A DNA stretch of 49,739 nucleotides, taken from Desulfobacterales bacterium (GTDB lineage Bacteria > Desulfobacterota > Desulfobacteria > Desulfobacterales > SKZT01). Where the stretch lies: the NCBI GenBank assembly GCA_018399715.1, contig JAGYNR010000004.1, forward strand, positions 1-49,739, read 5' to 3'. The translations under genes and the position numbers were made by a program. The notes beneath the pieces were generated by a model, which saw nothing but the letters and a program-made list of their open reading frames with translations, was not told the DNA's origin and did no database searches. Shown in pieces: positions 28,427-47,548 of this stretch; within the stretch, counting starts at the first letter, position 1; each line of letters begins with the position of its first letter.

Positions 28427-29869
28427 ATGGAAAAAACAAAGATTCCGGAAGAAAACGACGCGGCCAAAATTTTAATTGTCGACGATGAACCGTTAATATG
28501 TAATGCTTTGTCCCGCCTGATGAAAAGAAATGGTTTCGTTCCCTTGGTGGCCTATGAAGAGCATTCGGCTCTGGAGATGCTGCGCATCGAAATACCGGAC
28601 GTTGTGCTGTTGGATTTTCGAATGCCCAGCATGAACGGAATGGAGCTGATGAAAAAAGCCAAACAGCTGGATCCGGATCTTCCGGTAGTGATGATAACTG
28701 CGTATGCCGATGTTCATGGTGCCGTAGATGCCATGCGGGCCGGTGCGCATGACTATCTCGCCAAGCCGTTTGACCATAACGAAGTGATTCGGATCGTTCA
28801 CAGGGCCGTTTCAGAAAGAAAGCTGAAGATTAAGTTGAAAAACCTCTCCGCCCAATTGGGGGATCGATTGGTTCTTCGCAAACTGATGGGGCATAGTGAG
28901 GCGGTAGGCAAAATTATCATGGACATCAACAAAGTTGCGGCCTCCGACTTTTCAGTTATCATACTCGGAGAAACAGGATCAGGAAAGGAACTGGTCGCAA
29001 AGGCTATTCACCAGGCCAGTTCCAGGCGAGACGGTCCTTTTGTGGCCATCGATTGCGGTGCCATTCCGGAAACGCTGTTGGAAAGCGAGCTTTTCGGCTA
29101 TGAAAAAGGGGCTTTTACAGGCGCCGTAAAACGAAAACCGGGCAAATTTGAAATTTGCCAAAATGGAACCTTATTGTTGGACGAAATGTTCAACATGTCC
29201 ATGGCGGCTCAGGCCAAGCTTCTAAGAGTTCTTCAGGAAAGAAAATTCAATCGCATAGGCGGTACGCAACCAGTAAGCATGGATGTAAGGCTTCTGGTAG
29301 CGACCAACCGGGATCTGGAGGAAAGCTCCTTTGCCAATTTCCGAAAGGATCTGTTTTTTCGTCTAAATGAATTTACCATCAGAATTCCGCCGTTGAGAAA
29401 TCGAAAGGAAGACATTCCGTATCTGGCCAATCGTTTTCTAAAGTCGACGAACCTGGAATTGCAGAAGAATGTAAGGGGATTTAGCGAAGGAGCAATCGAC
29501 ATGCTGCTATCGTATGACTGGCCGGGAAACGTTCGTGAGCTTCGGTCGCTGATTCGAAGGGCAGTGCTGATAGCTGATGATCTGATCCTTGAAAAACATT
29601 TAGAAATCAAACGATCTTCACGAATAGAGAACGCTTCAGAGAACAAAAAAGGTGTTATCGAGTGGAAGGAATGTTCATTGAAGGAAATTGTGCGCAACAA
29701 GACCTTAGCAGTGGAACGGGAAGTGCTGACGGAGGTGCTCGATTACACGGATGGAAACAAGGCTAAAGCTGCGCGTCTTTTAAAAATCGATTACAAGACA
29801 ATCCATAATAAACTGAAAAGCTTTGGCATTACACCCAAAGGAGGAAAAAATGGCGGATCGACGGAATAA
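28427..29869 (+). CDS. Sigma54-dependent NtrC-type response regulator (GvrA-like)
   Basis: Receiver, GETGSGKE, ESELFG, GAFTGA, WPGNVREL, C-terminal Fis HTH. Confidence 0.93.
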   Translation: MEKTKIPEENDAAKILIVDDEPLICNALSRLMKRNGFVPLVAYEEHSALEMLRIEIPDVVLLDFRMPSMNGMELMKKAKQLDPDLPVVMITAYADVHGAVDAMRAGAHDYLAKPFDHNEVIRIVHRAVSERKLKIKLKNLSAQLGDRLVLRKLMGHSEAVGKIIMDINKVAASDFSVIILGETGSGKELVAKAIHQASSRRDGPFVAIDCGAIPETLLESELFGYEKGAFTGAVKRKPGKFEICQNGTLLLDEMFNMSMAAQAKLLRVLQERKFNRIGGTQPVSMDVRLLVATNRDLEESSFANFRKDLFFRLNEFTIRIPPLRNRKEDIPYLANRFLKSTNLELQKNVRGFSEGAIDMLLSYDWPGNVRELRSLIRRAVLIADDLILEKHLEIKRSSRIENASENKKGVIEWKECSLKEIVRNKTLAVEREVLTEVLDYTDGNKAKAARLLKIDYKTIHNKLKSFGITPKGGKNGGSTE

Positions 29870-30344
29870 AAAAGAAACGGGTTCCGTGTTTGACGGTATA
29901 CTCGATTTTTTGGAAAAAGTAGGGGACTTGGCCGAAAAGGGCGAACAACTGAGCAAGACGGTACAGGTGGAGGGAAAAGATAAAAGTGTAAAAGGGGTCT
30001 ACGGATTTTCCATGAAGTTCGGACTTGGAGGAGAAAAGCCCGAGGTTCAACCCTTTGGAAATATCCGGCCCGACGAAAGATCGGGCGAATCGTTTGTCCA
30101 AGAAGTTCGGGAACCGCTGGTGGATATTTTTGAGGAAAAGGACCATACGCTAATCGTAGCTGAAATGCCTGGTGTCAGCGAAAATGACATCAAGATTGAA
30201 GTCAACGACGACCTTCTCGAAATTAAGGCCGAGAAGGGAGAAAAGAAATATCGTAAGGAAATTCTTCTGCCCCGGGCGTATCCAAAGGAAAAAATGACGA
30301 CATCTTGTAACAACGGCATCTTGGAGATCAAATGCGAAATGTAA
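29850..30344 (+). CDS. gvpH: Hsp20/alpha-crystallin protein, GvpH-like/archaeal type
   Basis: GVYGFS..PFGNI..REPLVDIFEE..AEMPGV..NNGILEI; AGGAGG RBS, overlaps upstream gene. Confidence 0.8.
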   Translation: MADRRNKKETGSVFDGILDFLEKVGDLAEKGEQLSKTVQVEGKDKSVKGVYGFSMKFGLGGEKPEVQPFGNIRPDERSGESFVQEVREPLVDIFEEKDHTLIVAEMPGVSENDIKIEVNDDLLEIKAEKGEKKYRKEILLPRAYPKEKMTTSCNNGILEIKCEM

Positions 30345-30400
30345 ATTTGTTTATGTTTGAAATCCCTTTGGACAAAAACGGAAAGGAAGCTCGAGAAGAA

Positions 30401-32542
30401 ATGAATAAAACAAATCCAGAGCAATTAAAACTCAAGGTTGCCGAAGCCCTTAAAAAGGACGTTGGAAGATCTTACGCCAGGATGGACCCGGAGGACATCA
30501 AAAAAATCGGGGGCTCAATCGGTGATATTGTCGAAATAACGGGCAAAAAAACTGCTGTTTGCAAAGTCATGCCCGCCTATATGGAACAACGGCGGCGTTC
30601 GAGCGTCCAATTGGACGGCATCAGCCGAGAAAACGCAGGTTGTGGCATCGATGAGACCGTTTTGGTTCATAAGACTCCCTGTCTTGGGGCAGATACCGTA
30701 ACCCTTGTACCGATAAACATCACGCCGGCCAAAAGAGACTTAAACTATATTGGAAGTCTTCTGGATGGGCTTCCAGTTATAGCGGGGGATCGTATTCAAG
30801 CGACATTGTTTGGCAGCCGATCAGCTTATTTCAAAGTGGAGAACACGGTTCCCAAGGGGCCGGTCCTGATCAATCCAACTACCCGGTTGATGATCGGAAA
30901 ATCACAGGCCCCGGCAAAAGAAACCAAAAGCCATATCCGTTACGAGGATATCGGCGGATTGAGACATCAGGTGCAAAGAATTCGCGAAATGATCGAACTC
31001 CCATTGAGATTTCCGGAGGTCTTTGAGCGTCTGGGGATAGATGCTCCCAATGGAGTTTTGCTCTATGGTCCGCCGGGTTGCGGTAAAACATTGATTGCCA
31101 GAGCCATTGCACATGAGACCGAGGCTAATTTTTTTTCGGTCAGCGGCCCCGAAGTGGTTCATAAGTTTTATGGTGAAAGTGAAGCTCATCTGCGCAAGAT
31201 TTTCGATGAAGCCAGCCGGAGTGGACCGAGCATTGTCTTTCTGGATGAAATTGACGCCATTGCGCCCCAACGGGAAAAGGTGGTAGGAGATGTTGAAAAA
31301 CGTGTAGTAGCCCAGCTTTTAGCACTGATGGACGGTTTAACGCGTCGGCACAACTTGATTGTAATTGCCGCAACAAACATTCCCAATGCCCTGGATCCAG
31401 CGCTTAGAAGACCGGGTCGTTTTGATCGCGAAATCGGAATTCCCATCCCGGATAAGCACGGCCGGATGGAAATCCTTGACATTCACAGTAGAGGTATGCC
31501 ACTGGCTAAGAATGTTGATATGAAACACTTGGCGGAAATCACACACGGCTTTGTGGGGGCTGACCTCGAAGCCCTGTGCCGTGAGGCTGCAATGATATGT
31601 CTCCGGAGATTTCTTCCGGATATCGACTTCAACATGACTCAAATTCCTTACGATCAGCTCAAAAGTCTTGAGATTTACATGGATGATTTCCGATTGGCGC
31701 TTAAGGAAGTGGAGCCGTCTGCGATTCGAGAGGTTTTCGTAGAAGTCCCCAATGTGAAGTGGAAAGATATCGGGGGAAACGAAGAAATTAAAAAAAGCTT
31801 GGTAGAGGCGGTGGAGTGGCCGATTAATTATCCCCGGCTATTTGAAAAGGCAGGTGTTCGGCCTCCCAAAGGCATACTGCTTTCGGGGCCTCCCGGTTGC
31901 GGAAAGACCCTGTTGGCAAAGGCAATTGCCAATGAGAGCAACGTCAATTTTATTTCGGTCAAAGGACCCGAACTGATATCAAAGTATGTAGGAGAATCGG
32001 AAAAAGGTGTGCGGGAGATTTTCCGTAAAGCCCGACAGGCATCTCCCTGTATTGTGTTCTTTGATGAAATCGACGCCATGGTGGTTTCAAGAGGATCGTC
32101 TGGCTCGGATTCAAGCGTGGCCGAACGAGTGTTGAGCCAGTTTTTATCAGAATTCGATGGAATTGACGAGTTAAAGGGAGTTCTGATACTGGGAGCGACC
32201 AACCGATTGGATATGTTGGATGCTGCGGTTTTAAGACCTGGACGATTCGATGAGATTGTGGAAATTCCACTTCCTGCCGAAAAGGATCGGATGCAAATAT
32301 TTGGGGTGCATTTGAGAAAAAAACCTATAGTCGATGAAATAGATCCCGCGGAGCTTGCAAAGCTTACCGAAGGTTTAAGCGGAGCGGAAATAGAGGCGAT
32401 TTGCAACCGCGCCGCTCTCATGGCCGTCCGAAGGGCTATCAATGATGCTGAAGGCGAACCCAATTCAAACACAGGTGTCAAAATCCAAGCCGCAGACATG
32501 AAAACGGCTATGGAAGCGATGATGACGAAAGGCAGGTTTTAG
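30401..32542 (+). CDS. cdc48: Cdc48/p97/VAT-family double AAA+ ATPase (GvpZ-like)
   Basis: CDC48-like N domain, two GPPGCGKT Walker A, DEID Walker B, KFYGESE/KYVGESE pore loops, RPGRFD twice. Confidence 0.93.
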
Positions 32543-32558
32543 AAGAAAAATAACGGTG

Positions 32559-33371: not shown

Positions 33372-34111
33372 GTGTCTATTGTTTATATTGCATCTTTTCA
33401 GAAAGCAAAGCCTGCCTTCCGGATTCGCATATTCGGGGGGTGAGAGGTCGTCTGGTATATAATTTGTTCAAGAATGGCTTAGGAGCAGCCGTTTCGAAAC
33501 TTGAAACGCCCCCTTCAACAAAGACACAAAATTTGAAAGTTTTTTCAGACGTTATAGCAGAGTATCACAATCATCAAACTGTGATTCCTCTTCGTTTCGG
33601 ATGGATAACCCGGGACGAAGACCAGATTCGATCTGCTCTTCACAACAACGGGAAAATGCTTTGCAACCGGTTGAAATCCTTGAGCGGATGCTCGGAAATG
33701 GGTATCAGAATTTTGGGACAGGTTCCGCCGACAGCGTCAAAGGCAATTTTTGAGAAAAAACGGACAAAAACAGGAAAAGATTTTCTGATGGCCAGAAAAG
33801 CGTTTTATGACCTGACCAAACACGTTCCAATTGAAATCGAAAATAAAATCGAGATGTTAAAGAAAGAATTGTCCGAAACTTATACGGAGTACCGTTTCGA
33901 GAACAACGGAATTCAAATGTCCGGTCCGAATCGTGGATCTGAAAACCGTCTTCTTGTTTCTCTCTTTTTTCTGGTTCCAAATACTTTTACTGAAAAATTT
34001 TGCTCCATTTACAGACAGTTTTTATTTGAAGAAAATATTAGGGCACTATTGAGCGGTCCATGGCCCGTATTTAATTTTGTATCTGATATCGGCGATCTTT
34101 GCAAGCTGTAA
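33368..34111 (+). CDS. gvpF: Gas vesicle protein GvpL/GvpF family
   Basis: LYCI, VIPLRFG, GPWPVFNFV; ATGA overlap with previous gene. Confidence 0.82.
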   Translation: MSVYCLYCIFSESKACLPDSHIRGVRGRLVYNLFKNGLGAAVSKLETPPSTKTQNLKVFSDVIAEYHNHQTVIPLRFGWITRDEDQIRSALHNNGKMLCNRLKSLSGCSEMGIRILGQVPPTASKAIFEKKRTKTGKDFLMARKAFYDLTKHVPIEIENKIEMLKKELSETYTEYRFENNGIQMSGPNRGSENRLLVSLFFLVPNTFTEKFCSIYRQFLFEENIRALLSGPWPVFNFVSDIGDLCKL

Positions 34112-34158
34112 CAAAAAATTTGCCTGTTTGATTGACTCCCAGAAATATTGTGAACACC

Positions 34159-35646
34159 ATGAACACCATGAATGCATACAATTCAAAAAACTATTCAGTT
34201 GAACGTTGTGAGCGCTACAAAAAGCTTTATACCATGCTGTTGGATGCAATTCCAAGTTCAGTCCTGATGTTGGACCGGGACTTGAAAATCATTTCAGCCA
34301 ACAGAAACTTTTTGAGAAAAAGTCAACGTACGTCCATAAATACCGTGGGGAGAAGACTTTCGGAGATATTCCCGGCAGTGATTCTCAACCGCATGAAGAT
34401 TCCCGAACAAATCGACAGGGTGTTTGAATCCAACACCGCTACGTCGGGTCATCGCATGTACTATAGAGCGCCCGGCATGCCCATGCGGATCTATTATTAT
34501 CGAATCTTTCCATTTGCCTGGCAGGAGGTTGTGGAAAATATCATGTTTCTTATGGATGACGTCACTGAACAGGTCCGTTTGAGTGAGGAAGTTCAAAGGA
34601 TTGAAAGACACCTGGCTAGCGTCATCGACAGCGCCAGCGATATCATCCTTTCAACAGATACCGACAGTAAAATTTTGTCCTGGAACCCGGCAGCGGAAAA
34701 GATATCAGAATACCTGTTCATGGAGGTCAAAGGAAGAGTCCTATCCGATTTCATCGATTCCAACAAGCTTACCGAAATGCAAGAGGTTTATTCTGCTATG
34801 GTGAACGGCAGGGAATCACAGATGGCTGAATGGGATCTGATAAATAAACGCGGTGTTGGAATACGAGTTTTCTGGGTGTTTTCTCCTATGAGGAACGAAC
34901 ATCAAGCGACTACGGGTATCGTTGCAGTCGGAAGAGATTTGACGGAAAGAAAAAAACTCGAAGCTCACCTGTTAAAAAGCCAAAAGTTCGCCGCACTCGG
35001 CGTAATGGCTGGTGGAATCGCCCATGAAATCAGAAACCCGCTTGCAATTTGTTCATCATCGGCCCAATTTCTGATGGATGACAATATAGAAGATAATTTT
35101 CGGAAAGAATGCGCTGAAAAAATCTGTACAGGGATTCAAAGGGCCTCTATTATCATCGAAAATCTCCTGAGATTTGCCCGCCCTTCAGCTACGTCTCATA
35201 TGGAGACTGTAGATCTCAATGCTTTGGTCGAGGAAACTATCCCGCTTATCTATAACCAAGCAAAAATACAAAAAATCATTATAAAAACGGTCTTTCCGGA
35301 AAAACCGGTTTTTATCGTTGGAAACAACAGTCTTCTTCAACAAGTGTTGATTAACCTGTTTTTAAATGCAATCCAGGTTATGCCCGACGGCGGTGCAATT
35401 CGTTTGATGATCATGCAGATTGAAGATGAGGCGCTGATTCAAATAACAGATTCGGGACATGGTATTTCGAAACAAGACATAGACAAAATTTTCGATCCGT
35501 TTTACACTACTTCTCCGGTAGGCCGGGGATCCGGCTTGGGCCTTTCCATTTCGTATTCGATCGTTAAACAACATAATGGGGTTATTGAAGTGGAAAGTAA
35601 AGAAGGCAATGGGTGTACGTTTACGGTCCGATTTCCTGTGAGCTGA
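34159..35646 (+). CDS. Cytoplasmic PAS-PAS histidine kinase (GvrB-like)
   Basis: Two PAS domains, AHEIRNPL, NLFLNA, DSGHG, GSGLGL; no TM; start uncertain. Confidence 0.9.
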   Translation: MNTMNAYNSKNYSVERCERYKKLYTMLLDAIPSSVLMLDRDLKIISANRNFLRKSQRTSINTVGRRLSEIFPAVILNRMKIPEQIDRVFESNTATSGHRMYYRAPGMPMRIYYYRIFPFAWQEVVENIMFLMDDVTEQVRLSEEVQRIERHLASVIDSASDIILSTDTDSKILSWNPAAEKISEYLFMEVKGRVLSDFIDSNKLTEMQEVYSAMVNGRESQMAEWDLINKRGVGIRVFWVFSPMRNEHQATTGIVAVGRDLTERKKLEAHLLKSQKFAALGVMAGGIAHEIRNPLAICSSSAQFLMDDNIEDNFRKECAEKICTGIQRASIIIENLLRFARPSATSHMETVDLNALVEETIPLIYNQAKIQKIIIKTVFPEKPVFIVGNNSLLQQVLINLFLNAIQVMPDGGAIRLMIMQIEDEALIQITDSGHGISKQDIDKIFDPFYTTSPVGRGSGLGLSISYSIVKQHNGVIEVESKEGNGCTFTVRFPVS

Positions 35647-35702
35647 ATCCGGTCGATCGACGAACCAGTGTTTCGATTAATTCAATGGAAGATATAATTG
35701 TT

Positions 35703-36086
35703 ATGAATGAACGCGAAAAACTCTGCCTGATTATTGAGGACGAATCGGATATGTGCTGGGTCATGGAAACCCTTTTACTGGCCAATGGCATACGTTCCAA
35801 AAAGGCATTGGACGGACGCAGTGCCATCGATCTGATTGGACGGTATCAATTTGAATTGATTTTTTTGGATGCGAAACTTCCGGACATAGACGGCCTCGAT
35901 CTGGCTAAAAAAATTTGCTCTCTGGACGCAAAAATACCTATTATTTTAGTATCCGGATATTTTTACAATGACGACACTGCTATAAGAACAGCTTTTGACA
36001 AAGGCATCATTAGCAGTTTCATTTCCAAACCGTTTCAAAATGAGGAAATTTTGAAAGCCATCGAGGTCGCTATCCAAAAAAGATGA
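35703..36086 (+). CDS. Single-domain response regulator (GvrC-like)
   Basis: IIEDE, FLDAKLPD, SG, KPF; start may be 35685. Confidence 0.88.
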   Translation: MNEREKLCLIIEDESDMCWVMETLLLANGIRSKKALDGRSAIDLIGRYQFELIFLDAKLPDIDGLDLAKKICSLDAKIPIILVSGYFYNDDTAIRTAFDKGIISSFISKPFQNEEILKAIEVAIQKR

Positions 36087-37111: not shown

Positions 37112-38329
37112 ATGGGCAGTTTTGCGGACGAAATGATACGGCTGAAGTCGGAAATCGATAACCTTTCCGAGAGTCGAATGTCATTTATCAATGATTTGAA
37201 ACAAAACGTCGCCGATAAAAAATTGGACACAGTTAAAATGATGGCTGATTTTCGGAAAGAATATGAAGAAATGGCGAACAACGATAGAAAATCACGCGAT
37301 GACTTTTTGAATCATCTGAACACGTATGTAGCCGATATGCGGGATAATTTCAAAAAAGAACGAGCCAATAGTTCCAGGCGGATGCATGAGGAACTGAATC
37401 AATTTATGACGAATATAAGGAGTTTTGTAACCGATCTTGCTCAGGATGTGGCGCGAATGCAGGAAGGTTTTTGTCAGGAAAGGGGTAACATGGCCGGGGA
37501 GCTCCGTGCGGAACTGAAAGAAGCTATTAATGGCATCAACGCTACGGTGTCGGAATTGAAAAACAAGACGACGGAAATGCAACAAAACTTTCGGAAAACT
37601 TTTGCTGAAACATCCGGAGCAGACCGCAAGGCTAGAACGGACTTTATTTCGGGGTTGAAGTCTGAGGTGGACTCATTGCAAAAATCTTTCTGCAACGCCC
37701 GTTTTGAAACGGCAACAAAAATGAAAGCGGATTTCGCGGAAACCATGAGAGGCTTGAAGGAATTCATGGGAGAATTAAGTGGTTCCGTTGCTCAGATGCA
37801 AGCGGATTTTCTGGATTCAAGACTGGAAACCGCCAGGAAAGGCATTGCGGAAAGGCAGGAATTCATATCGGATTTGGTTCGATCGGTAATGGATATTCGG
37901 AATAAGACCGAGCAGTTTCGAAAGAAATTCGCCGATGATTTGGCCCAGGGTCGTGCGGTATGGTCGTCGGACTCGGCACAGGAGGTTCCAATCGTCTCTG
38001 AAGAAGTAGCAGTTGAAAGTGAGGAAAGTGAGGAAAGTGAGGAAACAGTCGAAACAACAGTCGAAGAAAGCGAGAACGTCAAACCAACGGAGATGATAAA
38101 AACAGATCAAGCACCTGAAGAACAAAAGGAAGAAGATATAGGAAAGGATGATTTGACTTATATTGATGGGATCGGTTCCGGAAGACATAAGCAACTGAAC
38201 GCGGCTGGAATTTATACGTTCAAACAATTGGCTGAAAGCACCGATGACGAAATTCGGGCAGCTCTGGGAGAATCTTCGAGGCATGTTGATGTTGATAAAT
38301 GGATTCAACGCGCGAAAGAATTTGTCTAG
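37112..38329 (+). CDS. gvpC: GvpC-like helical repeat protein with acidic linker and C-terminal helix-hairpin-helix domain
   Basis: Between gvpA and gvpN; repeating F..L...V..M...F...R helices; DDLTYIDGIG HhH motif. Confidence 0.7.
   Translation: MGSFADEMIRLKSEIDNLSESRMSFINDLKQNVADKKLDTVKMMADFRKEYEEMANNDRKSRDDFLNHLNTYVADMRDNFKKERANSSRRMHEELNQFMTNIRSFVTDLAQDVARMQEGFCQERGNMAGELRAELKEAINGINATVSELKNKTTEMQQNFRKTFAETSGADRKARTDFISGLKSEVDSLQKSFCNARFETATKMKADFAETMRGLKEFMGELSGSVAQMQADFLDSRLETARKGIAERQEFISDLVRSVMDIRNKTEQFRKKFADDLAQGRAVWSSDSAQEVPIVSEEVAVESEESEESEETVETTVEESENVKPTEMIKTDQAPEEQKEEDIGKDDLTYIDGIGSGRHKQLNAAGIYTFKQLAESTDDEIRAALGESSRHVDVDKWIQRAKEFV
38015..38041 (+). repeat. In-frame 9-bp tandem repeat (GAAAGTGAG)x3
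   Basis: Encodes ESE x3 in the acidic linker. Confidence 0.85.
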
Positions 38330-38380: not shown

Positions 38381-39331
38381 ATGACCAATAATGTTGCCTT
38401 TTTAAAGGAAACCATGATCAGGGCTCCGGTGCCTCAAAATGACGCTGTAGCACCGGAACCCGGCGATGGATTCGTTAACACACCATATGTTCAGGACATT
38501 ACCGAGCGAGCTTTGGCATATCTTCAGGTAGGATACCCGGTTCATTTTGCCGGCCCCGCAGGGACCGGCAAAACTACGCTGGCTTTTCATGTAGCGGCCC
38601 AGCTGAAACGAAGTGTCATGTTGATCCACGGAGATGACGAGTTCGGAAGTTCTGACCTCGTCGGAAAGGATTCAGGATACCGTAAGTCGAGGGTTATCGA
38701 TAACTATATCCACTCGGTAGTAAAGACCGAGGAACAAATGAATACTGTATGGGCGGACAATCGGCTGACGGTTGCCTGCCAAAAAGGGTTTACCCTCATA
38801 TACGACGAGTTTACCAGATCCCGGCCGGAGGCGAATAACGCCTTTTTGAGCGTGCTTGAAGAAAAGATTTTAAATCTTCCCAGACTGAGGAATTTTGGGC
38901 AGGGATACCTTCAGGTCCATCCGGATTTCCGTGCTATCTTTACAAGCAATCCGGAAGAGTACGCCGGGACCCATAAAACCCAGGACGCCATTATGGACCG
39001 CTTAATCACGATTACGCTCAATCACTTCGACTTCGACACCGAAGTGCAGGTAACCATGGCTAAATCGGGGTTGGGAAAACAGGACGCCGAGGTAGTCGTA
39101 ACAATTGTGAGGAAAATGCGGAGTATCGGCGTCAACAACCATCGTCCTACCATCAGGGCATGTATAGCCATTGGAAAAATTCTATCGTACATGGGAGGCC
39201 CCGCTTCAAAAGACAATCCGAATTTTCGGAAAATTTGTCGGGATGTTCTCAATGTGGATACGGCCAAGGTTACTCGCGCCGGAGAACCTTTAATTCAGCG
39301 AAAAATCGATGCTACCATCGATGATCTATAA
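38381..39331 (+). CDS. gvpN: Gas vesicle AAA+ ATPase
   Basis: GPAGTGKT, IDNYIHSV, YDEFTRSRPEANN, TSNPEEYAG. Confidence 0.96.
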   Translation: MTNNVAFLKETMIRAPVPQNDAVAPEPGDGFVNTPYVQDITERALAYLQVGYPVHFAGPAGTGKTTLAFHVAAQLKRSVMLIHGDDEFGSSDLVGKDSGYRKSRVIDNYIHSVVKTEEQMNTVWADNRLTVACQKGFTLIYDEFTRSRPEANNAFLSVLEEKILNLPRLRNFGQGYLQVHPDFRAIFTSNPEEYAGTHKTQDAIMDRLITITLNHFDFDTEVQVTMAKSGLGKQDAEVVVTIVRKMRSIGVNNHRPTIRACIAIGKILSYMGGPASKDNPNFRKICRDVLNVDTAKVTRAGEPLIQRKIDATIDDL

Positions 39332-39376: not shown

Positions 39377-39697
39377 ATGAACAATACCAACAGAAAGCCC
39401 ATCAGAGGATTACAGGACATCAGAACCAATTCGGGTAAGATAGATCATCTTTCTCATCCGCATATGGCGTATATGAGAATAAGCTGCCTGGAAATGGAAA
39501 AAGCGAGAAAAATCAAGGAAAAGGATAGCGCACTTCGCAGGATCGCAATAATAGATGATCGTATCCGGGAAATAGAAGAGGAAAAGAGAGACATTCAAAG
39601 GGTTATGGCAGAGCAGGAAGCCACTCAAAAACAACCATGTGGCTGCCAAAACAACCGGGCTCCTTGCGAAAATGATATTTTCAAAATTCGATACTGA
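39377..39697 (+). CDS. Small coiled-coil gas vesicle protein, GvpV-like
   Basis: After gvpN; YMRISCLEMEKAR coiled coil; assignment mostly positional. Confidence 0.6.
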   Translation: MNNTNRKPIRGLQDIRTNSGKIDHLSHPHMAYMRISCLEMEKARKIKEKDSALRRIAIIDDRIREIEEEKRDIQRVMAEQEATQKQPCGCQNNRAPCENDIFKIRY

Positions 39698-39765: not shown

Positions 39766-40524
39766 ATGACAAAAGAACCCTCGCACAATACCGGCCGGTA
39801 TCTATACGCTGTTGTCGACAGGACGGATAATCTTGACTATGGTCCTATCGGAATCGAGGAATCTGCTGTATATACAATTTCCGACGGGATCATATCCGCT
39901 GTTGTCAGCAATATTTCGAACAAAAAACTACGACCGCAACGAAAAAACCTGGCGGCTCATCAAAATGTCCTTAAAAAAATTATGGAACATACCACTCCCC
40001 TTCCGATGGCATTCGGGATCATTGCAAACGGAGAAAAAGCCATCAGGAAAATTCTCACGGACAATAAAGAGATTTTCACCGAAAAGTTAAATCTTACGGC
40101 AGGGAAAGTGGAGATGGGAATGAGGGTTTCGTATGATGTTCCCAACATTTTCGAATATTTTATATCAATATATCCGGACCTCAGGGCAGCTAGAGACCGG
40201 TTTTTCGGAGGATACCGTGAACCCAGCCAAGAGGCTAAACTGGAATTGGGACGTATGTTTGACAGGTTGTTGAACGAAGACAGGGAAAAACACGTCAGCA
40301 AAGTCGAACATGTACTGACCTCATATTGTCATGAAATCTTAAGAGGCCGGTTCAGAAACGAGCAGGAAGTGATGAACCTTGCCTGTCTTATCGGAAGAAA
40401 TGAGCAGGAACATTTTGAAGAGGGCGTTTTCAAGGCAGCGGGATTGTTCAACAATAATTTTTCGTTCGAGTACAACGGTCCGTGGGCGCCTCATAATTTT
40501 GTGAATATTAATCTAAAACTCTGA
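39766..40524 (+). CDS. gvpF: Gas vesicle protein GvpF/GvpL family
   Basis: YLYAV, AHQNVL, LPMAFG, GPWAPHNFV. Confidence 0.92.
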   Translation: MTKEPSHNTGRYLYAVVDRTDNLDYGPIGIEESAVYTISDGIISAVVSNISNKKLRPQRKNLAAHQNVLKKIMEHTTPLPMAFGIIANGEKAIRKILTDNKEIFTEKLNLTAGKVEMGMRVSYDVPNIFEYFISIYPDLRAARDRFFGGYREPSQEAKLELGRMFDRLLNEDREKHVSKVEHVLTSYCHEILRGRFRNEQEVMNLACLIGRNEQEHFEEGVFKAAGLFNNNFSFEYNGPWAPHNFVNINLKL

Positions 40525-40544: not shown

Positions 40545-40775
40545 ATGTTGCTTGTAGACGACGTTTTATTTTCGCCCATAAAAAGCATTTTCTGGATATT
40601 TCGGGAGATTCACAACGCTGCTCATCAGGAAAAGGCCAACGAAGCCGAATCTTTGACTGCGGAGTTGAGCGAGCTTTACATGATGCTCGAAACGGGAAGA
40701 ATAACAGAGGAACAATTCGACGAAAGAGAAGGGCAAATCCTGGACAGGCTGGATGAAATCCAGAGCAAAGAATAA
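40545..40775 (+). CDS. gvpG: Gas vesicle protein GvpG
   Basis: P......WI..I, LETGRITEEQFDERE..LDRL. Confidence 0.92.
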   Translation: MLLVDDVLFSPIKSIFWIFREIHNAAHQEKANEAESLTAELSELYMMLETGRITEEQFDEREGQILDRLDEIQSKE

Positions 40776-40812: not shown

Positions 40813-42756
40813 ATGGCTTCGGTAAGGAAAAAAATGAATCCAAAATCTTTATTCAACGGAAAAAATTTTCAACTGATTTTTTTCGGCGGTAAAGGCGGTG
40901 TTGGAAAAACGTCTTGCGCTGTTGCATATAGCCTGACACTAGCATCCAGTAGACCCGGTTCTGAATTTTTACTGGTTTCCACAGATCCTGCTCATTCCAT
41001 TGACGACAGCCTCGATAGTTTTCAACCTCCCCCCAATCTGACGATTCGATGTATAGAAGCTACCGAATGCCTGGAAAAATTCAAAAACAAAAATCAAGGA
41101 AATCTGAAAGAAATCGCTCTGAGAGGAACTTTTTTCGACGAGATCGATATTGAGAACATCTTGGATCTCTCTTTTCCGGGTCTTGACGAACTGATGGGAT
41201 TTTTAGAGATTGCAGAATCGGCAGCTTCGGAAAAATATGAATCCATCATTGTCGATACTGCACCCACCGGCCATACGCTTCGTCTTTTGGAAATGCCGAA
41301 GCTGGTAGGAACATGGCTTGATGCCATAGATGCTCTTCTCGCCAAATATCGATACATGAAAAAGCTTTACAGGGGAACTTATCAAAAGGAAAATATTGAT
41401 GCTTTCCTGTTAAATCTTTCCGAATCCGTAAAACAAATGGAAGCCTTGTTCACGAGCAAGAAAAAATGCCGGTTTGTTCCGGTACTAATCCCTGAACCGT
41501 TGATCCTTTTCGAAACCGAAAATTTGATCAGCAGTTTGCGCTTGGCGCGATTTCCTGTATCTGATATTATTATAAACCGAATTTGCCCGCCAACCAACTG
41601 TCCCGTTTGTTCAGATATGCGCCGAAGACAGTTGGTCTGTCTTTCCGATTTTTCAAAAATGCTTTCGGGTTATCGATTATGGGGAGTTCCTCTGTATGCT
41701 GAAGAAGTCGGAGGCAATTTGTTGACCGATATCTTCTGGCAAAGTGCCAATGAAGTTGATATCGAACAAGAAATTGACGTTGACCGGCCTGGAAAATCCC
41801 TATTCAACGCAACCGTCGAAAATCCTGCGCCTTTTCCTGACAAGAATTTAAAGTTTATCATTTTTGCCGGGAAAGGGGGTGTCGGCAAAACCACATTGGC
41901 GTGTTCAACGGCCTGCGGCCTGGCCCAAAAGTACAAAGACAGGGAAATATTTTTGTTTTCTACGGATCCGGCGCACTCACTTTCCAGGTGTTTGAAAAAA
42001 ACGATCGGATCAAGTCCTGTAAGAATTTCACCAAGACTTACCGCAATGGAAATCAACGCTCCGGAAAGTTACAGGGAATTGAAACAAACGTATGCCGATG
42101 AATTGGAAAAATTTTTGCAGCGGTTCTCTGCCAACATGAATTTAACCTTTGACCAGGAGGCAATGAAACATCTGATGGACTTAGCACCACCGGGGATAGA
42201 CGAGGTGATGGCACTGAATCTGGCCATGGAGTATATGGCCGGAGGACAATACGACTTGTTCGTTTTGGACTCCGCTCCAACAGGACACTTGCTTCGGCTG
42301 CTTGAAACACCGGAACTCATGGACAGATGGCTGAAAACCATTTTCGGTATCTTTTTGAAATATAAAAACATATTTCGCCTGCCCGGTCTGTCGCAAAAAC
42401 TGGTGGGAATTTCCAAGCACCTAAAAATATTGCGAAAAACATTATCCGATAAAAGAAGGTCGGCTATTTTCGCTGTTTCTATCCTGACACGCATGGCGTT
42501 GGAGGAAACCGTTGATCTGGTATCCTCCTGTAATTCGATCGGTGTCAATACACCGGTCCTTTTCCTGAACATGGCCATTCCAAACAGTTCCTGTCAATTA
42601 TGCGCCTCTATTTACAACAGAGAACAATCGGTCCGAAAAAAATTCAAGGCATTCTTTCCGAAACAATTTCAAACTATTATCTATCGTCATCCAGACCCCA
42701 CCGGCATTGAGGAACTTGAAAACCTGGCATCATTAATCTACAAAGGGTTGGGATAA
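40813..42756 (+). CDS. Tandem ArsA/Get3(TRC40)-family P-loop ATPase
   Basis: Two halves each with GKGGVGKT, STDPAHS, D(T/S)APTGH and CxxC (CPVC, CQLC). Confidence 0.92.
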   Translation: MASVRKKMNPKSLFNGKNFQLIFFGGKGGVGKTSCAVAYSLTLASSRPGSEFLLVSTDPAHSIDDSLDSFQPPPNLTIRCIEATECLEKFKNKNQGNLKEIALRGTFFDEIDIENILDLSFPGLDELMGFLEIAESAASEKYESIIVDTAPTGHTLRLLEMPKLVGTWLDAIDALLAKYRYMKKLYRGTYQKENIDAFLLNLSESVKQMEALFTSKKKCRFVPVLIPEPLILFETENLISSLRLARFPVSDIIINRICPPTNCPVCSDMRRRQLVCLSDFSKMLSGYRLWGVPLYAEEVGGNLLTDIFWQSANEVDIEQEIDVDRPGKSLFNATVENPAPFPDKNLKFIIFAGKGGVGKTTLACSTACGLAQKYKDREIFLFSTDPAHSLSRCLKKTIGSSPVRISPRLTAMEINAPESYRELKQTYADELEKFLQRFSANMNLTFDQEAMKHLMDLAPPGIDEVMALNLAMEYMAGGQYDLFVLDSAPTGHLLRLLETPELMDRWLKTIFGIFLKYKNIFRLPGLSQKLVGISKHLKILRKTLSDKRRSAIFAVSILTRMALEETVDLVSSCNSIGVNTPVLFLNMAIPNSSCQLCASIYNREQSVRKKFKAFFPKQFQTIIYRHPDPTGIEELENLASLIYKGLG

Positions 42757-42786: not shown

Positions 42787-43020
42787 ATGTCTGAAATAAT
42801 CATAGGAGAAAAAAACCAACAGGTTTCGCTTTGTGAAGCTTTGGACAGGGTCTTAAACAAGGGTGCGGTCATCGTTGGAGAGGTAACCATTTCCGTAGCG
42901 GATATTGATCTTGTCTACCTGGGGCTTCAGGCGGTATTGACATCGGTCGAAACTGCAAAAAAAATGACGCAAACGCAACTAGAGGATCATTTGAGGGAAC
43001 CGCAAAATGAACATGACTGA
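42787..43020 (+). CDS. GvpA/J-family minor gas vesicle protein (GvpS/GvpA2-like)
   Basis: LDRVLNKGAVI.G...ISVADIDL. Confidence 0.88.
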   Translation: MSEIIIGEKNQQVSLCEALDRVLNKGAVIVGEVTISVADIDLVYLGLQAVLTSVETAKKMTQTQLEDHLREPQNEHD

Positions 43021-43369
43021 AAAAATACAGGTCGAGTCCCAAACCGCGAAAGATTTCGTAAGGCTGATGACCAATAATCATCTCTCCCGCAGCCCAAAAA
43101 ATTCGGCGGAGCATTTGAACATAAACGAGGAAAACGTCAAAAACGGACTTGCGCAGCTTGTCTTAACCTTGATTAAGCTTCTTCATGAACTACTTGAAAA
43201 ACAGGCGATCCGACGTATTGATTCTGAATCTTTGACCGATGAACAAATCGAGCGTCTCGGATTGACCCTTATGAAACAGTCCGAGGAAATCGAAAGGCTA
43301 CGCCTGGCGTTCAATATTGAAGAAAATGATTTGAACCTCAATTTGGGCCCTTTAGGAAAGCTTCTTTAA
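43007..43369 (+). CDS. gvpK: Gas vesicle protein GvpK
   Basis: GLAQLVLTL..LLEKQAIRR..ERLG..DLNLNLGPLG. Confidence 0.95.
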   Translation: MNMTEKIQVESQTAKDFVRLMTNNHLSRSPKNSAEHLNINEENVKNGLAQLVLTLIKLLHELLEKQAIRRIDSESLTDEQIERLGLTLMKQSEEIERLRLAFNIEENDLNLNLGPLGKLL

Positions 43370-43384
43370 AAAGGAAAAAACACC

Positions 43385-43678
43385 ATGTCCATTCAACGCT
43401 CAGCTCAGCATTCTGTAGAAAGCACCAACATCGCAGACCTTTTGGAACGGATCTTAGACAAAGGAATTGTCATTGCTGGTGATATCAAAATCAGCCTGGT
43501 GGATATTGAACTGTTATCGATACAGTTAAGACTTGTGGTTTGCTCCGTGGAAAAGGCCAAGGAAATGGGGATGGACTGGTGGGTGAACAATCCGGTTTTC
43601 ACCCATAACAACGATCCAGTCGTTAAGGCACTGTCTAAAATCGAAAACCGACTAGAAAAACTGGAAGCCTCCGGATAG
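43385..43678 (+). CDS. gvpJ: Gas vesicle protein GvpJ family
   Basis: [18 protein letters not shown]...SVEKAKEMGMDWW. Confidence 0.9.
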   Translation: MSIQRSAQHSVESTNIADLLERILDKGIVIAGDIKISLVDIELLSIQLRLVVCSVEKAKEMGMDWWVNNPVFTHNNDPVVKALSKIENRLEKLEASG

Positions 43679-43792: not shown

Positions 43793-44224
43793 ATGAAAAA
43801 TATTCTGATTATTGATGATCAAAAAGAAGTGCTGAATTTGCTCCGATTAGCTTTAAGCACCTATGGATTTCTTGTTGAAATAGCACAGGGTAGCCTTGAA
43901 GGTGTTAAAAAATTTGATTGCGGGAATTTTGATATGGTGATAACAGCCATTAATATGTCGAAACACAGTGGAAATGAAGTTTGTGAATATGTGAGAAAGT
44001 CGAACACCCCCAATATCAAGGTGATCGGAATGTCGGAAGATTTACCGGCATTATCAGACAATCAGTTTGATAAAATTATTCAAAGGCCCTTTCCATTAAA
44101 GAAATTTCTTGAACAGGTTCAGGACATTTTTCGGGAAAATGATAAACGAAAGGGTATCAAAATTAAACCCCATAAAACTAGTTTGGTATCCACCGTTTAC
44201 ATCAGTGCCTCTTCAATTTTATAA
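43793..44224 (+). CDS. Atypical (pseudo-)receiver domain protein
   Basis: IIDD intact but VITAINM (acceptor Asp to Ala) and QRPF (Lys to Arg). Confidence 0.75.
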   Translation: MKNILIIDDQKEVLNLLRLALSTYGFLVEIAQGSLEGVKKFDCGNFDMVITAINMSKHSGNEVCEYVRKSNTPNIKVIGMSEDLPALSDNQFDKIIQRPFPLKKFLEQVQDIFRENDKRKGIKIKPHKTSLVSTVYISASSIL

Positions 44225-44265
44225 CTGTATTGAAATATGAGTTTGGAGGAAAAAATAAATACAAT

Positions 44266-45279
44266 ATGGATACAATTCAAAAGGATTCTCACCGAATAAT
44301 GGTTGTAGACGATGAAATGATGGTCCGGGAATTAATCTCTCAATGGATAGATGAGTGGGGATATGATTGCTTTGTTGCTTCTAGCGGCGTTGAGGCGCTC
44401 CGCATGATAAGTGAAAACTCTATTGATGTGGTTCTTGCAGATATTATGATGCCCGACATGAGCGGCATTGAACTAACCCAAAAAATAAAAGATCAATATG
44501 ATGCTGATGTTATTATTATGACAGCTTTTACCCAAGATTATGATTATGGAATTGCTATCAGAGAAGGTGCAAGCGATTTTATAGAAAAGCCGATTTCGAT
44601 GTCGGAATTGAATTTGAGACTTTGTCGGGTGTTAAGGGAGCGAAGAGAGTGTGTTGAAAGAAAAGAATTTTTTGAAAAGAATAGACAAAACGTCAAACAA
44701 CTTTACAAAACCATTTATGGCGTTATTCGTGCAATGACAACAATTGTCGAAATACGTGATACTTATGCGGTGGGGCATCAAAAAAGAGTTGCAGATCTTG
44801 CAAGAACGATTGCAATACATTTAAAATTACCGAAAAATGAAATTAATGGGGTATACTTAGCTGCGCTTATACATGATATCGGAAAAATATCAATTCCTTT
44901 TGAAATATTGTCGAAGCCCCGAAAGTTAACCAAAATAGAATACGAATTTTTTAAGATGCATCCCAAAACTGCCTATAGAATTTTGAGAGATATAGATTTT
45001 CCGTGGCCCATTGCTGATATTATTCTTCAACATCATGAGCGTCTGGATGGATCTGGTTATCCTTATGGATTGAAAGGTGATGAAATCATGACGGAGGCTA
45101 AAATCCTGGGAGTAGCCGATGTGATTGAAGCAATGGTTACACCTCGGATTTATCGGTCTTCTTACTTAAGCATCGAAGATGCACTTAATGAAATTCAGAA
45201 TCAAAAGGGAATACTCTATGATTCGGATGTCGTAGATGCTTGTGAATACATTTTGACGGAAAATGTATGGCATTTCTAA
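44266..45279 (+). CDS. Response regulator with HD-GYP phosphodiesterase domain
   Basis: Receiver (ADIMMP), HDIGK, HHERLDGSGYP. Confidence 0.92.
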   Translation: MDTIQKDSHRIMVVDDEMMVRELISQWIDEWGYDCFVASSGVEALRMISENSIDVVLADIMMPDMSGIELTQKIKDQYDADVIIMTAFTQDYDYGIAIREGASDFIEKPISMSELNLRLCRVLRERRECVERKEFFEKNRQNVKQLYKTIYGVIRAMTTIVEIRDTYAVGHQKRVADLARTIAIHLKLPKNEINGVYLAALIHDIGKISIPFEILSKPRKLTKIEYEFFKMHPKTAYRILRDIDFPWPIADIILQHHERLDGSGYPYGLKGDEIMTEAKILGVADVIEAMVTPRIYRSSYLSIEDALNEIQNQKGILYDSDVVDACEYILTENVWHF

Positions 45280-45382
45280 GTGCCCTGACCGCTATCAGGG
45301 TCATTACTTTACGCATCAATCCAATTTTCGATGAAGAAAAGGTTTTGGCTGCGAAAGACCTTATGGAACAGGAGATGCGGTA

Positions 45383-47548
45383 ATGAACAGAGATCATCCC
45401 AGGTACGACAAACTGAAAAAATGGTTCACTACACTTATTCGCCGGAAAAGCGAGCTCTTCGCGTTGCTCGAAATCAGCACCAGGCTAACTGGCTCCTACA
45501 ACTTTCAGGTACTGTTGCAGACGATAACGGATAGCGCTGCAAAAATTCTTCCCCATGGGGCGTCGGTCATTTATCTCTTGAAGGACACAACCTTTCATGT
45601 TGCGGCTGCCACCTCCGAGCTTTCTCCGAACCTTCCCGAAAAATTCCGCACACTGTCGTTGTCCGATCATCCCCATATCTGTCGGGCTATGGATACGGAT
45701 TCACCCGTCATCCTAGCTAATATCCGTAAAGCAGAACTGACAGCAGCCGAAAAATGGGTAAGCGACTTGCTTGGGCTCTCTTCCCTGATTTATTTGCCCC
45801 TGATTTACAAGGAAAAACCGATCGGTGTCCTCCTAGTAGGCAATGTAGAAAAGCCCTATCGATTTGTCGATGAAGACGTCGACTTTTTGAAAACCATGGC
45901 CAATCATATCTCCCTGGAGATCGAGGATGCACGTCTTTTTGAGGAAAATCAACGTCACATTGCTGAACTTGAGTGTGTGATGAAAAAGCAGCAGCAAACT
46001 CAAAAAGCTCTGCAGGAAAGCGAATCGTTGTTTCGCAACTCGTTTCAGAAACATGCTGCAGTGAAACTAATAATCGATCCCGATGATGGCCGAATCGTGG
46101 ATGCCAATGAAGCGGCCGCAAAATTCTATGGCTGGTCACAGAAAGAACTGCGCCGGATGAACATATCAGATATCAATCAGCTTTCATCTTCTCAGATAAA
46201 AGCTGAAATAGATAAGGTACGGAACGATAAACGGGTCTATTTCGAATTTCAGCACCGTCGGGCAGATGGGTCCATCAGAGATGTGGCGGTCTACAGTTCC
46301 GAAATCGAATCCGGGGGGAAAACCCTGTTGCACTCGATCATCCACGACATTACCGAGCGCAAGCGGACCGAAAAAGAACGCAACAGTCTTCAAAAACAAT
46401 TGATGCAAGCCCAGAAACTGGAATCCATAGGCAGGCTGGCAGGCGGGGTGGCTCATGATTTTAACAACATGCTCAACGTTATTATCGGTTACGGGGAGCT
46501 TATTCTTGATAAACTCCAACCGGGTAACCCCATGCAGGTGTATGTCGAGGAAATCGTGAAAGCCGGTTATCGGTCAGCGTTTTTGACCCGCCAGCTACTG
46601 GCTTTCAGCCGCAAACAGACCCTGCAGCCAAAAGAGTTCGATCTAAACGATTTGGTTCGCAACATTGAAAAAATGATACGTCGGTTGATCGGTGAAGATA
46701 TCGAGCTGAAAATTGTCCTCGCACAAGATATCGGCCGGGTATTGGTTGATCCGGGACAAATTGATCAGGTGATCATGAACCTGGTAGTGAATGCCCGTGA
46801 TGCCATGCCTAAAGGCGGAAAGCTGTTCATCGAAACCGCAGTGGTTGATCTCGACAAGACTTCTGCAGAGAAACGTTCCCTGGTTAAACCTGGAAAATAT
46901 GTGCTGCTCGCCGTGACGGACACGGGATGCGGAATGAACAAGGAAATTTTAAATCTAATATTCGATCCATTTTTTACCACCAAGAAAAAAGGACAGGGAA
47001 CCGGTCTGGGGCTTTCCACAGTGTATGGTATCGTCAAACAATCTCATGGCAACATTTGGGTCTATTCCGAGCCGGGGCAAGGTACGACGTTCAAAATCTA
47101 CCTTCCGCAAATCGAGATGATACAAGAGGTGGTGGCCGAAAAACGTGAAGAGGTCGATCTATCTGGAGGCGATGATAAACATATCTTGGTAGTGGAAGAT
47201 GAGGAGAGTCTGCGAAAACTGATTAACAGCATCCTTTTGCGGTTGGGCTACACTGTAACTCTGGCTGCCGATGGGAATGAAGCCCTTCTGCTGGTGGAGG
47301 AGAAAGGCTTGAAGCCCGATCTGATTCTGACCGATATGGTGATGCCAAACATGAGCGGAAAGGAACTGGTGGATTGCCTCCGGAAGAACTGCCCCGATCT
47401 CAAAGTGCTTTACATGTCCGGATATACAGCCAATGCCATCGTGCATGAAGAGGTTATAGATCACGGTTCATCCTTTATCCGGAAACCCTTCACCATCGGA
47501 AATATTAAGGCCAAAATCCGAAATGTTCTCAACAGCGACGACCAATGA
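45383..47548 (+). CDS. GAF-PAS hybrid histidine kinase/receiver
   Basis: GAF, PAS, AHDFNN, NLVVNARDAM, GTGLGL, C-terminal receiver TDMVMP. Confidence 0.92.
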   Translation: MNRDHPRYDKLKKWFTTLIRRKSELFALLEISTRLTGSYNFQVLLQTITDSAAKILPHGASVIYLLKDTTFHVAAATSELSPNLPEKFRTLSLSDHPHICRAMDTDSPVILANIRKAELTAAEKWVSDLLGLSSLIYLPLIYKEKPIGVLLVGNVEKPYRFVDEDVDFLKTMANHISLEIEDARLFEENQRHIAELECVMKKQQQTQKALQESESLFRNSFQKHAAVKLIIDPDDGRIVDANEAAAKFYGWSQKELRRMNISDINQLSSSQIKAEIDKVRNDKRVYFEFQHRRADGSIRDVAVYSSEIESGGKTLLHSIIHDITERKRTEKERNSLQKQLMQAQKLESIGRLAGGVAHDFNNMLNVIIGYGELILDKLQPGNPMQVYVEEIVKAGYRSAFLTRQLLAFSRKQTLQPKEFDLNDLVRNIEKMIRRLIGEDIELKIVLAQDIGRVLVDPGQIDQVIMNLVVNARDAMPKGGKLFIETAVVDLDKTSAEKRSLVKPGKYVLLAVTDTGCGMNKEILNLIFDPFFTTKKKGQGTGLGLSTVYGIVKQSHGNIWVYSEPGQGTTFKIYLPQIEMIQEVVAEKREEVDLSGGDDKHILVVEDEESLRKLINSILLRLGYTVTLAADGNEALLLVEEKGLKPDLILTDMVMPNMSGKELVDCLRKNCPDLKVLYMSGYTANAIVHEEVIDHGSSFIRKPFTIGNIKAKIRNVLNSDDQ

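Follow-up and report, generated by a model that had tools for sequence, protein, structure and literature searches.

Gas vesicles are lipid-free, protein-walled organelles, and it is an open question how the hydrophobic subunits of the GvpA family stay soluble and enter the growing vesicle. GvpA and GvpJ need chaperoning, for which GvpF and GvpG have been proposed (PMC11445434). Two-domain ArsA homologues in the gas vesicle (gvp) gene clusters of four phyla were reported in 2010 by Castillo and Saier, with examples (their clusters 4 and 6) from Geobacter uraniireducens Rf4, Nostoc PCC 7120, Pelodictyon luteolum and an acidobacterium. These homologues have lost the three cysteines, C113, C172 and C422 in Escherichia coli ArsA, that serve as metalloid ligands, and were proposed to energise a step of vesicle biogenesis (PMC2963123). 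In a 2017 study, an ArsA from cyanobacteria and eight Gvp proteins were grouped as co-evolving (PMC5464585), and in Nodularia an ArsA (nsp15480) is numbered directly after the gvp run nsp15380-15470 (PMC3610870). The gene considered here, termed ArsA2, encodes a two-domain ATPase of the ArsA/Get3 family inside a gvp cluster of a Desulfobacterales bacterium; it lies in a stretch of 49,739 nucleotides (nt) of contig JAGYNR010000004.1, which is referred to as the window. ArsA2 belongs to a known but uncharacterised kind of gvp-associated ATPase. The original prediction for this DNA, made from the sequence alone, took it for the best candidate for an undescribed component, and in this respect it is overtaken by the reports of 2010 and 2017 (PMC2963123, PMC5464585). 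Literature searches found no experimental study of gvp-associated ArsA homologues and no paper linking gas vesicles with Get3; for gas vesicles together with tail-anchored proteins, the occurrences shown in the retrieved excerpts lay only within the title of a cited reference about Msp1. From the comparisons described below we infer that ArsA2 is an accessory factor of gas-vesicle biogenesis that belongs to a distinct branch of the ArsA/Get3 (SIMIBI) ATPases.

The open reading frame of ArsA2 (40813..42756, plus strand) encodes 647 amino acids (aa). Translation probably starts at the ATG at 40834, which gives a protein of 640 aa, since an AGGA lies 7 nt upstream of it, the database copy (P0001) has 640 aa and the homologues begin there. 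Pfam recognises two ArsA_ATPase stretches (E 1.1e-107; PF02374, 360.3 bits against a cut-off of 24.3), and TIGR00345, the model of the TRC40/GET3/ArsA superfamily, scores 349.2 bits against a cut-off of 135. The original prediction described a tandem ATPase with both P-loops and switch motifs intact and with a late CxxC in each half, and reading the DNA bears this out: the motifs are complete, the P-loop and switch residues of both halves are invariant across an alignment of 36 relatives, and the late cysteine pairs are CPVC in the N half and CQLC in the C half (Table 1). The predicted tight packing between gvpG and the gvpJ-like, gvpK and gvpJ genes is also seen, with 37 nt from gvpG to the start at 40813 and 30 nt to the downstream gene of the GvpA family.

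A genuine arsenite or antimonite pump ATPase that is merely located in the operon would agree with public annotation, which names close homologues of ArsA2 'arsenite-transporting ATPase' or 'ArsA family ATPase', and with the overall fold, which matches that of ArsA. The computations contradict such an identity and leave it next to no credibility. For comparison, 51 distinct proteins of the ArsA family encoded at related loci were scored with TIGR04291, the equivalog model of ArsA; a P-loop pattern had located 80 genome loci, which supplied 49 of these proteins. The 30 proteins above the TIGR04291 cut-off of 650 bits are called true ArsAs here. All 30 of them score between 684 and 940 bits, and ArsA2 scores 168.3 bits and was rejected as a member of the equivalog. 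For an alignment of separated halves, partial proteins and spurious overlapping open reading frames were removed, and 12 of the 30 true ArsAs were kept. In this alignment the three columns of the metalloid ligands hold Cys in 12 of the 12 true ArsAs. ArsA2 features Gly at two of these columns (G123 and G461) and no Cys at the third, and Gly occupies the two columns in all 27 halves of the gvp clade that is described below. No ars gene is located on the ArsA2 contig (C178), as the original prediction had stated for the window. Family searches of the whole assembly, which is 76.7% complete, gave no match to ArsB, ArsD or ArsC (PF03960), and fragments of Acr3 and ArsR-type helix-turn-helix (HTH) domains are found on other contigs (C27, C236, C242 and C113). 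None of the 30 true ArsAs has a gvp gene within 10 kb. The routine label 'arsenite-transporting ATPase' for genes of this kind is corrected by these results. The likely ars locus of the assembly is on C27, where positions 3710-3850 encode an ArsR-type HTH and the contig ends in an Acr3 fragment, and contig C45 carries a separate single-domain gene of the ArsA family.

The original prediction called for a phylogeny against ArsA and named clustering with the pump ArsA, together with retained metalloid ligands, as a finding that would speak against it. The ligand cysteines are gone, and the trees place ArsA2 in a separate clade. Two maximum-likelihood trees of the halves were calculated, one with 122 rows and support from the Shimodaira-Hasegawa-like approximate likelihood ratio test (SH-aLRT), and one with 78 rows and bootstraps. 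The N and C halves of true ArsA form one clade together with a split pair from Sulfobacillus (SH-aLRT 98; 100/98 in the 78-row tree). The gvp-linked N halves, the gvp-linked C halves and a single-domain form from Chlorobiaceae form another, the gvp clade (SH-aLRT 99; 94/99 in the 78-row tree), and both halves of ArsA2 fall inside it in both trees. Its members include gvp-linked proteins from Acidobacteriota and Chlorobiaceae and a cyanobacterial two-domain protein. Within it the N halves and the C halves group apart (SH-aLRT 96 and 93 in the 122-row tree). Both trees favour a tandem fusion separate from that of ArsA; however, a single duplication shared with ArsA is not rejected by the approximately unbiased (AU) test (log-likelihood difference 36.3, p 0.135), and an independent duplication is not claimed because of this value. 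A second, longer ArsA2-like type also has its tree position inside the gvp clade. Its open frames span 617-809 aa and are 37-41% identical over residues ~72-406; it is present at loci L102-L106, L118 and L119 in five genomes of the phylum (G140, G212, G182, G078 and G298), with a GvpA-family gene directly after it in G212 and gvp genes about 6 kb away in G078.

The homologues of ArsA2 are linked to gvp genes almost throughout. In a sample of 401 genomes of the window's phylum, an ArsA2-like match (E <= 1e-60) is present in 15 genomes, a GvpA-family gene (PF00741) in 35 and both in 14. PF00741 is thus found in 14 of the 15 genomes with an ArsA2-like match versus 21 of the 386 without one, and the sole ArsA2-like genome without a gvp match is 82% complete. 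The order gvpF-gvpG-X-gvpJ-gvpK-gvpJ is found in all nine further genomes whose homologue reaches 45% identity or more. A scan of metagenomes with the single ArsA2 protein as query gave no relative. A second scan used a back-translated motif of the clade that is internal to the gene, and it returned 80 loci, 74 of which encode a homologue. The longest tblastn match is 43-57% identical for 73 of these homologues and 31% identical for one. A gvp gene lies within the 2-kb flanks of 72 of the 74; the flanks of the remaining two are very short or partial. Two-domain relatives that score below the ArsA equivalog cut-off are gvp-linked in 12 of 13 cases among the 80 genome loci of the P-loop pattern, the linked ones being from Acidobacteriota, Rokubacteria, Planctomycetota, Myxococcota, Gemmatimonadota and Chloroflexota. 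The same linkage is seen for two single-domain relatives from Chlorobiaceae. This branch of ATPases is widespread and dedicated to gvp clusters; among 50%-identity clusters, 150 or more representatives reach E <= 1e-80. The neighbourhood survey that had been suggested therefore supports the linkage (9/9, 72/74 and 12/13), and the computations gave none of the outcomes that the original prediction had listed as speaking against it.

The exception among the 13 two-domain relatives is a protein of Lyngbya (L012, 8146-14653), which belongs to the same clade and has no gvp gene within 10 kb; it adjoins a CDC48-like gene whose product is 50% identical to that of the window, as well as fraC, DUF5357 and ABC-2 genes, and it lacks both CxxC motifs. 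A homologue that is 55% identical to ArsA2 is annotated in Desulfocicer (formerly Desulfobacterium) vacuolatum DSM 3385. When expressed in E. coli at 30 °C, the gene cluster of Desulfobacterium vacuolatum yields vesicles (PMC10344784), and the terms 'arsA' and 'arsenite' do not occur in the main-text passages and the 12 of 20 supplementary files of that paper that were searched.

The proteins of solved structure that are closest to ArsA2 in sequence are targeting factors of the Get3 kind. The best sequence relative is ArsA1, the tandem chloroplast tail-anchor factor of Chlamydomonas (5zme, 7.8e-54), and it is followed by archaeal Get3 (2.8e-37) and then Giardia and fungal Get3; E. coli ArsA has an E value of 1e-29. 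The claim that the late CxxC sits at the position of the Get3 zinc site holds in the alignment for both halves (Table 1). Cys occupies the two CxxC columns of all 4 archaeal Get3-like proteins and of none of the 12 true ArsAs. In the gvp clade Cys is present at the two columns in 25 and 24 of 27 N halves, and in 24 of 27 C halves. Four additional cysteines of ArsA2 (C219, C364, C393 and C573) are invariant in the close clade and are conserved only there. An AlphaFold2 model of ArsA2 built with 36 sequences features a closed pseudo-dimer with a mean predicted local distance difference test score (pLDDT) of 84.3 and a predicted template modelling score (pTM) of 0.83. The whole model superposes on closed Leptospirillum ferriphilum ArsA with a Z score of 32.1 and a root-mean-square deviation (rmsd) of 3.2 Å over 531 residues. 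The C half superposes on closed yeast Get3-ADP-AlF4 with Z 27.3 and rmsd 2.6 Å over 273 residues; Get3 structures that hold tail-anchor helices give similar scores, and the range for Get3 is Z 25-27. By a crude measure, the four helices of the helical subdomain comprise 100-103 residues and are 49% hydrophobic in the gvp halves, 101 residues and 44% hydrophobic in archaeal Get3-like proteins, and 88 and 79 residues and 41% and 39% hydrophobic in the two halves of true ArsA.

Taken together with the gvp linkage, these features make it very probable that ArsA2 acts in vesicle formation or upkeep. The reading preferred here is that it does so as a Get3-like chaperone that hands over clients of the GvpA family, with a rough probability of 45%. 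According to this proposal, the two fused halves would form a pseudo-dimer that is hinged in most members by a four-cysteine site (CxxC + CxxC) resembling the zinc site of Get3. Binding of ATP at both P-loops would close the clamp, so that a hydrophobic surface arises from the two Get3-sized helical subdomains. This surface would capture or shield the hydrophobic core of newly made GvpA-family proteins, i.e., GvpA and the GvpJ/M/S-like proteins, after translation, and hydrolysis of ATP would release the subunits to the GvpF/G/L/K assembly machinery. The Hsp20 protein and the CDC48-like unfoldase of the same cluster are possible partners. ArsA2 would raise the efficiency or the fidelity of assembly and would not be essential. 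The chaperone reading agrees with the published statement that GvpA and GvpJ depend on chaperoning (PMC11445434).

Several observations weigh against this reading, and most of them concern the accessory status of the gene. The gene is dispensable in evolution, since no ArsA2-like match is present in 21 of the 35 PF00741-positive genomes of the phylum sample. Six of these 21 genomes, chosen for gvp and CDC48-like matches on one contig, were examined; their clusters have the same genes as that of the window, and gvpG is followed directly by the gvpJ-like gene in all six. The order in four of the six is sigma-54 regulator, Hsp20, CDC48-like, two gvpL/F, kinase, regulator, gvpA, the gene of the 405-aa protein, gvpN, the gene of the 106-aa protein, gvpF, gvpG, gvpJ-like, gvpK and gvpJ; the other two have the kinase/regulator pair or the Hsp20-CDC48-gvpL/F block elsewhere in the cluster. 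One of the six clusters, that of G067 (contig C150; L243, 2463-2705, minus strand), retains an 81-residue relic of ArsA2 that corresponds to residues 25-105 with 46% identity (E 5e-15). The relic occupies exactly the ArsA2 slot, after gvpG and before the gvpJ-like gene, in a cluster whose gene content and order are otherwise the same, and it points to loss by deletion. The syntenic clusters without the gene and the relic together indicate a secondary loss of ArsA2 from clusters that are otherwise retained. The ArsA2-type gene is also interrupted in two of the nine close homologues (G229, L114; G384, L115). These two genomes belong to one genus and show one TAA or split open reading frames, and gvpF is split too; their clusters may be decaying, or the interruptions may be assembly errors. 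To our knowledge, the published gene lists of the Anabaena flos-aquae, Bacillus megaterium and Serratia clusters include no such ATPase. These model clusters make vesicles in E. coli (PMC10344784). The hydrophobic stretches of the GvpA-family proteins, the supposed clients, are only moderately hydrophobic, with best 19-residue Kyte-Doolittle means of 1.66-1.69.

The accessory status is equally what a modulator would show, which fits an alternative in which ArsA2 is a nucleotide-dependent switch or scaffold that, by closing upon ATP binding, recruits, spaces or positions assembly complexes or finished vesicles, or times nucleation, and holds no unfolded subunits. ArsA2 belongs to the same superfamily as MinD and ParA, and its weak matches in Pfam and NCBIfam are to CbiA, ParA and MinD. 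Its slot beside gvpF, gvpG and gvpL, whose products are proposed nucleation or chaperone factors (PMC11445434), is kept across phyla. However, sequence and fold are nearest to Get3 and ArsA1, not to MinD or ParA, and the fused pseudo-dimer rules out cycling between monomer and dimer. MinD and ParA are not known to have a helical subdomain of the Get3 kind, whereas both halves of ArsA2 feature one that is full-sized and hydrophobic. A switch or scaffold of this type is regarded as unlikely.

The cysteine pairs raise a further objection to the chaperone model as drawn above. Both CxxC motifs are absent from the gvp-linked proteins of a Phycisphaerales (L015) and a Gemmatimonadaceae (L018) genome, one half lacks the motif in L113, and L016 and the single-domain form of Chlorobiaceae have it only in incomplete form. 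This loss in some gvp-linked relatives means that a zinc or redox hinge cannot be central to the shared function. Oxidised Get3 acts as a holdase, and the original prediction considered that ArsA2 couples vesicle assembly to redox state, a claim that is weakened by the missing and incomplete motifs. The same distribution bears on this idea as an alternative reading, a redox or metal sensor in which the paired CxxC motifs bind zinc or a soft metal or form disulfides and couple the vesicles to redox conditions or sulfide. The CxxC at the Get3 position in both halves and the invariance of C219, C364, C393 and C573 in the close clade would suit such a sensor; the loss of CxxC from relatives and the restriction of the extra cysteines to the close clade do not, and a sensor is considered very doubtful.

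The Get3-like chaperone reading allows for partners from general proteostasis, and several gvp clusters encode such parts. In the phylum sample of 401 genomes, homologues of the CDC48-like ATPase with at least 58% identity are present in 24, each of which belongs to the 35 gvp-positive genomes, and the genes are mostly on gvp-containing contigs. Copies of lower identity are mostly in gvp-negative genomes. Hsp20 and a CDC48-like gene accompany the ArsA2-like gene in a Phycisphaerales, an Anaerolineales and two Chlorobiaceae loci, and in the latter two the three genes, with ArsA in its single-domain form, adjoin one another. Besides the window, the loci with Hsp20 and the CDC48-family ATPase at the gvp cluster are L015, L020-L022, L108, L109, L112 and L240-L245. 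One GvpL/F protein of Chlorobiaceae (L021, 13110-14129) is fused to a DnaJ J-domain (PF06386, 1.5e-45; PF00226, 1.3e-10), a fusion that suggests recruitment of Hsp70 to vesicle assembly. Literature searches on gas vesicles and Cdc48 returned nothing concerning bacterial gvp clusters, judged from titles and abstracts.

These companions are the basis of another alternative, namely that ArsA2 serves quality control or recycling with the CDC48-like unfoldase and Hsp20 and handles misassembled or collapsed shell protein, through extraction, holding and renewed delivery or disposal, instead of carrying out first delivery. In several phyla the gvp clusters combine Hsp20, the CDC48-family ATPase and the ArsA2-like gene, which agrees with it, as do their adjacency in Chlorobiaceae and the Lyngbya gene, which adjoins a CDC48-like gene without gvp genes within 10 kb. 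Yet the CDC48-like gene is kept in all six examined clusters that lack ArsA2, so the two are not obligate partners, and the ArsA2 loci of Acidobacteria, Rokubacteria, Myxococcota and Gemmatimonadota have no CDC48-like or Hsp20 match within 10 kb. A role confined to quality control is quite unlikely on this balance. A broader scheme can be entertained only tentatively, and it is improbable as a whole: many bacterial gvp clusters would encode a three-part triage for small, very hydrophobic shell proteins, with a Get3-like clamp, an unfoldase of the Cdc48 kind and Hsp20 as the holdase.

The features of ArsA2 and of the surrounding cluster are collected in Table 1.

Table 1. Features of ArsA2 and of the gas-vesicle cluster around it (positions in the window)
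Feature	Position	Strand	Basis or remark
Hsp20, cluster head	29823..30344	+	PF00011; NF041800 141.2 vs cut-off 140
CDC48-family double AAA+ ATPase, cluster head	30332..32542	+	CDC48_N and two AAA domains; TIGR01243, 884 bits vs cut-off 802.65
Two GvpL/F genes	32556-33371 and 33368-34111	+	PF06386
gvpA, major shell protein, 72 aa	36759..36977	+	PF00741
405-aa helical protein after gvpA, no family match	37112..38329	+	position kept in related clusters
gvpN (AAA+)	38381..39331	+	TIGR02640, 346 bits vs cut-off 266.8
106-aa protein, no known family, between gvpN and gvpF	39377..39697	+	conserved there
gvpF	39766..40524	+	PF06386, 2.4e-57
gvpG	40545..40775	+	PF05120, 2.2e-15
Two-domain ArsA/Get3-family ATPase gene (ArsA2)	40813..42756	+	open reading frame listing; two PF02374 stretches; TIGR00345
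N-half deviant Walker A GKGGVGKT, residues 26-33	40888..40911	+	read from DNA
N-half switch I STDPAHS, residues 56-62	40978..40998	+	read from DNA
N-half switch II / DTAP motif DTAPTGH, residues 148-154	41254..41274	+	read from DNA
N-half CxxC CPVC, residues 263-266	41599..41610	+	aligns with CxxC of Giardia Get3 7spz
C-half Walker A GKGGVGKT, residues 353-360	41869..41892	+	read from DNA
C-half switch I STDPAHS, residues 383-389	41959..41979	+	read from DNA
C-half switch II DSAPTGH, residues 486-492	42268..42288	+	read from DNA
C-half CxxC CQLC, residues 594-597	42592..42603	+	aligns with CxxC of archaeal Get3 3zq6
GvpA-family minor protein (GvpJ/M/S-like, 77 aa)	42787..43020	+	PF00741; best NCBIfam is GvpM, below cut-off
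gvpK	43007..43369	+	PF05121, 2.3e-31
GvpA-family minor protein (GvpJ-like, 97 aa)	43385..43678	+	PF00741

Nothing in the regulatory scan separates ArsA2 from its operon. Between 33000 and 45500 there are 31 promoter-like sites versus 24.6 ± 5.2 in shuffled sequences and 15 terminator-like sites versus 13.0 ± 4.0, with no excess of either. The 405-aa protein is found at the same position after gvpA in all related clusters with 24-31% identity; it features an acidic 9-nt repeat, GAAAGTGAG, at 38015-38045 and a C-terminus that is weakly DUF4332-like, and it may be a GvpC-like outer protein. The 106-aa protein is 37-61% identical in related clusters. Signalling genes are located in and around the cluster (28427-29869, 34132-36086 and 43793-47548). 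They include a sigma-54-dependent response regulator and, inside the cluster, a PAS histidine kinase with a receiver; further downstream are genes for a receiver, for a receiver-HD-GYP protein and for a GAF-PAS hybrid kinase. Related clusters share both the kinase and the regulator found inside this cluster.

The ArsA2 branch with its Get3-like features provides a concrete candidate chaperone for gas-vesicle subunits. Heterologous expression of vesicles as acoustic reporter genes suffers from proteotoxic stress (PMC12848028, PMC11445434). If the three-part triage is true, it would parallel the targeting and extraction of eukaryotic tail-anchored proteins for an organelle that has a protein wall and no lipid, and the Get3 type of post-translational capture and hand-over of a hydrophobic segment would have been recruited, or would have arisen, outside membrane biology.

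The systems that can be compared with ArsA2 include the chaperone candidates of the cluster itself. GvpF/GvpG and GvpN are cluster-encoded and are thought to keep subunits competent for assembly or to supply energy (PMC11445434), as is proposed here for ArsA2. They differ in that they have unrelated folds and are core genes, all present in the window, whereas the ArsA2-type gene is an extra that is missing from many clusters. The pump ArsA (E. coli R773, 1f48; L. ferriphilum, 9nbw) has the tandem architecture and the overall fold in common with ArsA2. In contrast to it, ArsA2 lacks the three ligand cysteines, scores below the equivalog cut-off, has no ars neighbours and belongs to a separate clade, and its helical subdomains are longer and more hydrophobic.

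Get3/TRC40 (yeast 2woj/4xtr; archaeal 3zq6 and 3ug6) shares with ArsA2 the fold, the deviant Walker A and switches I and II, as well as a CxxC at the corresponding site and helical subdomains of equal size. Get3 is a homodimer of single-domain subunits, whereas ArsA2 features two domains fused in one polypeptide, is bacterial and belongs to the operon of an organelle with a protein shell and no lipid; moreover, the CxxC is not universal among its gvp-linked relatives. ArsA1 of Chlamydomonas reinhardtii (5zme/5zmf) is, like ArsA2, a tandem pseudo-dimer and no arsenite pump. It has no Cys opposite CPVC of the N half in the alignment, and it is eukaryotic and serves membrane targeting, unlike the gvp-encoded ArsA2. 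Its superposition on the whole ArsA2 model is poor (rmsd about 16 Å), which probably reflects a different conformation. The closest match in both protein and context remains the set of Castillo and Saier: those homologues are about 640 aa long with two ArsA domains, as is ArsA2, and are located among gvpF/G/J/K/L/N, often with hsp20 and with no ars genes. ArsA2 is a further member of that set from a different lineage, and nothing essential differs. Relative to the parts of PMC2963123 that were available, the present analysis adds the Get3-type CxxC, the Get3-sized subdomains, the CDC48-like partner gene and the loss polymorphism. As far as the searches show, it also adds the scale and near-exclusivity of the gvp linkage, the relic and the recurring Hsp20 and CDC48-like companions.

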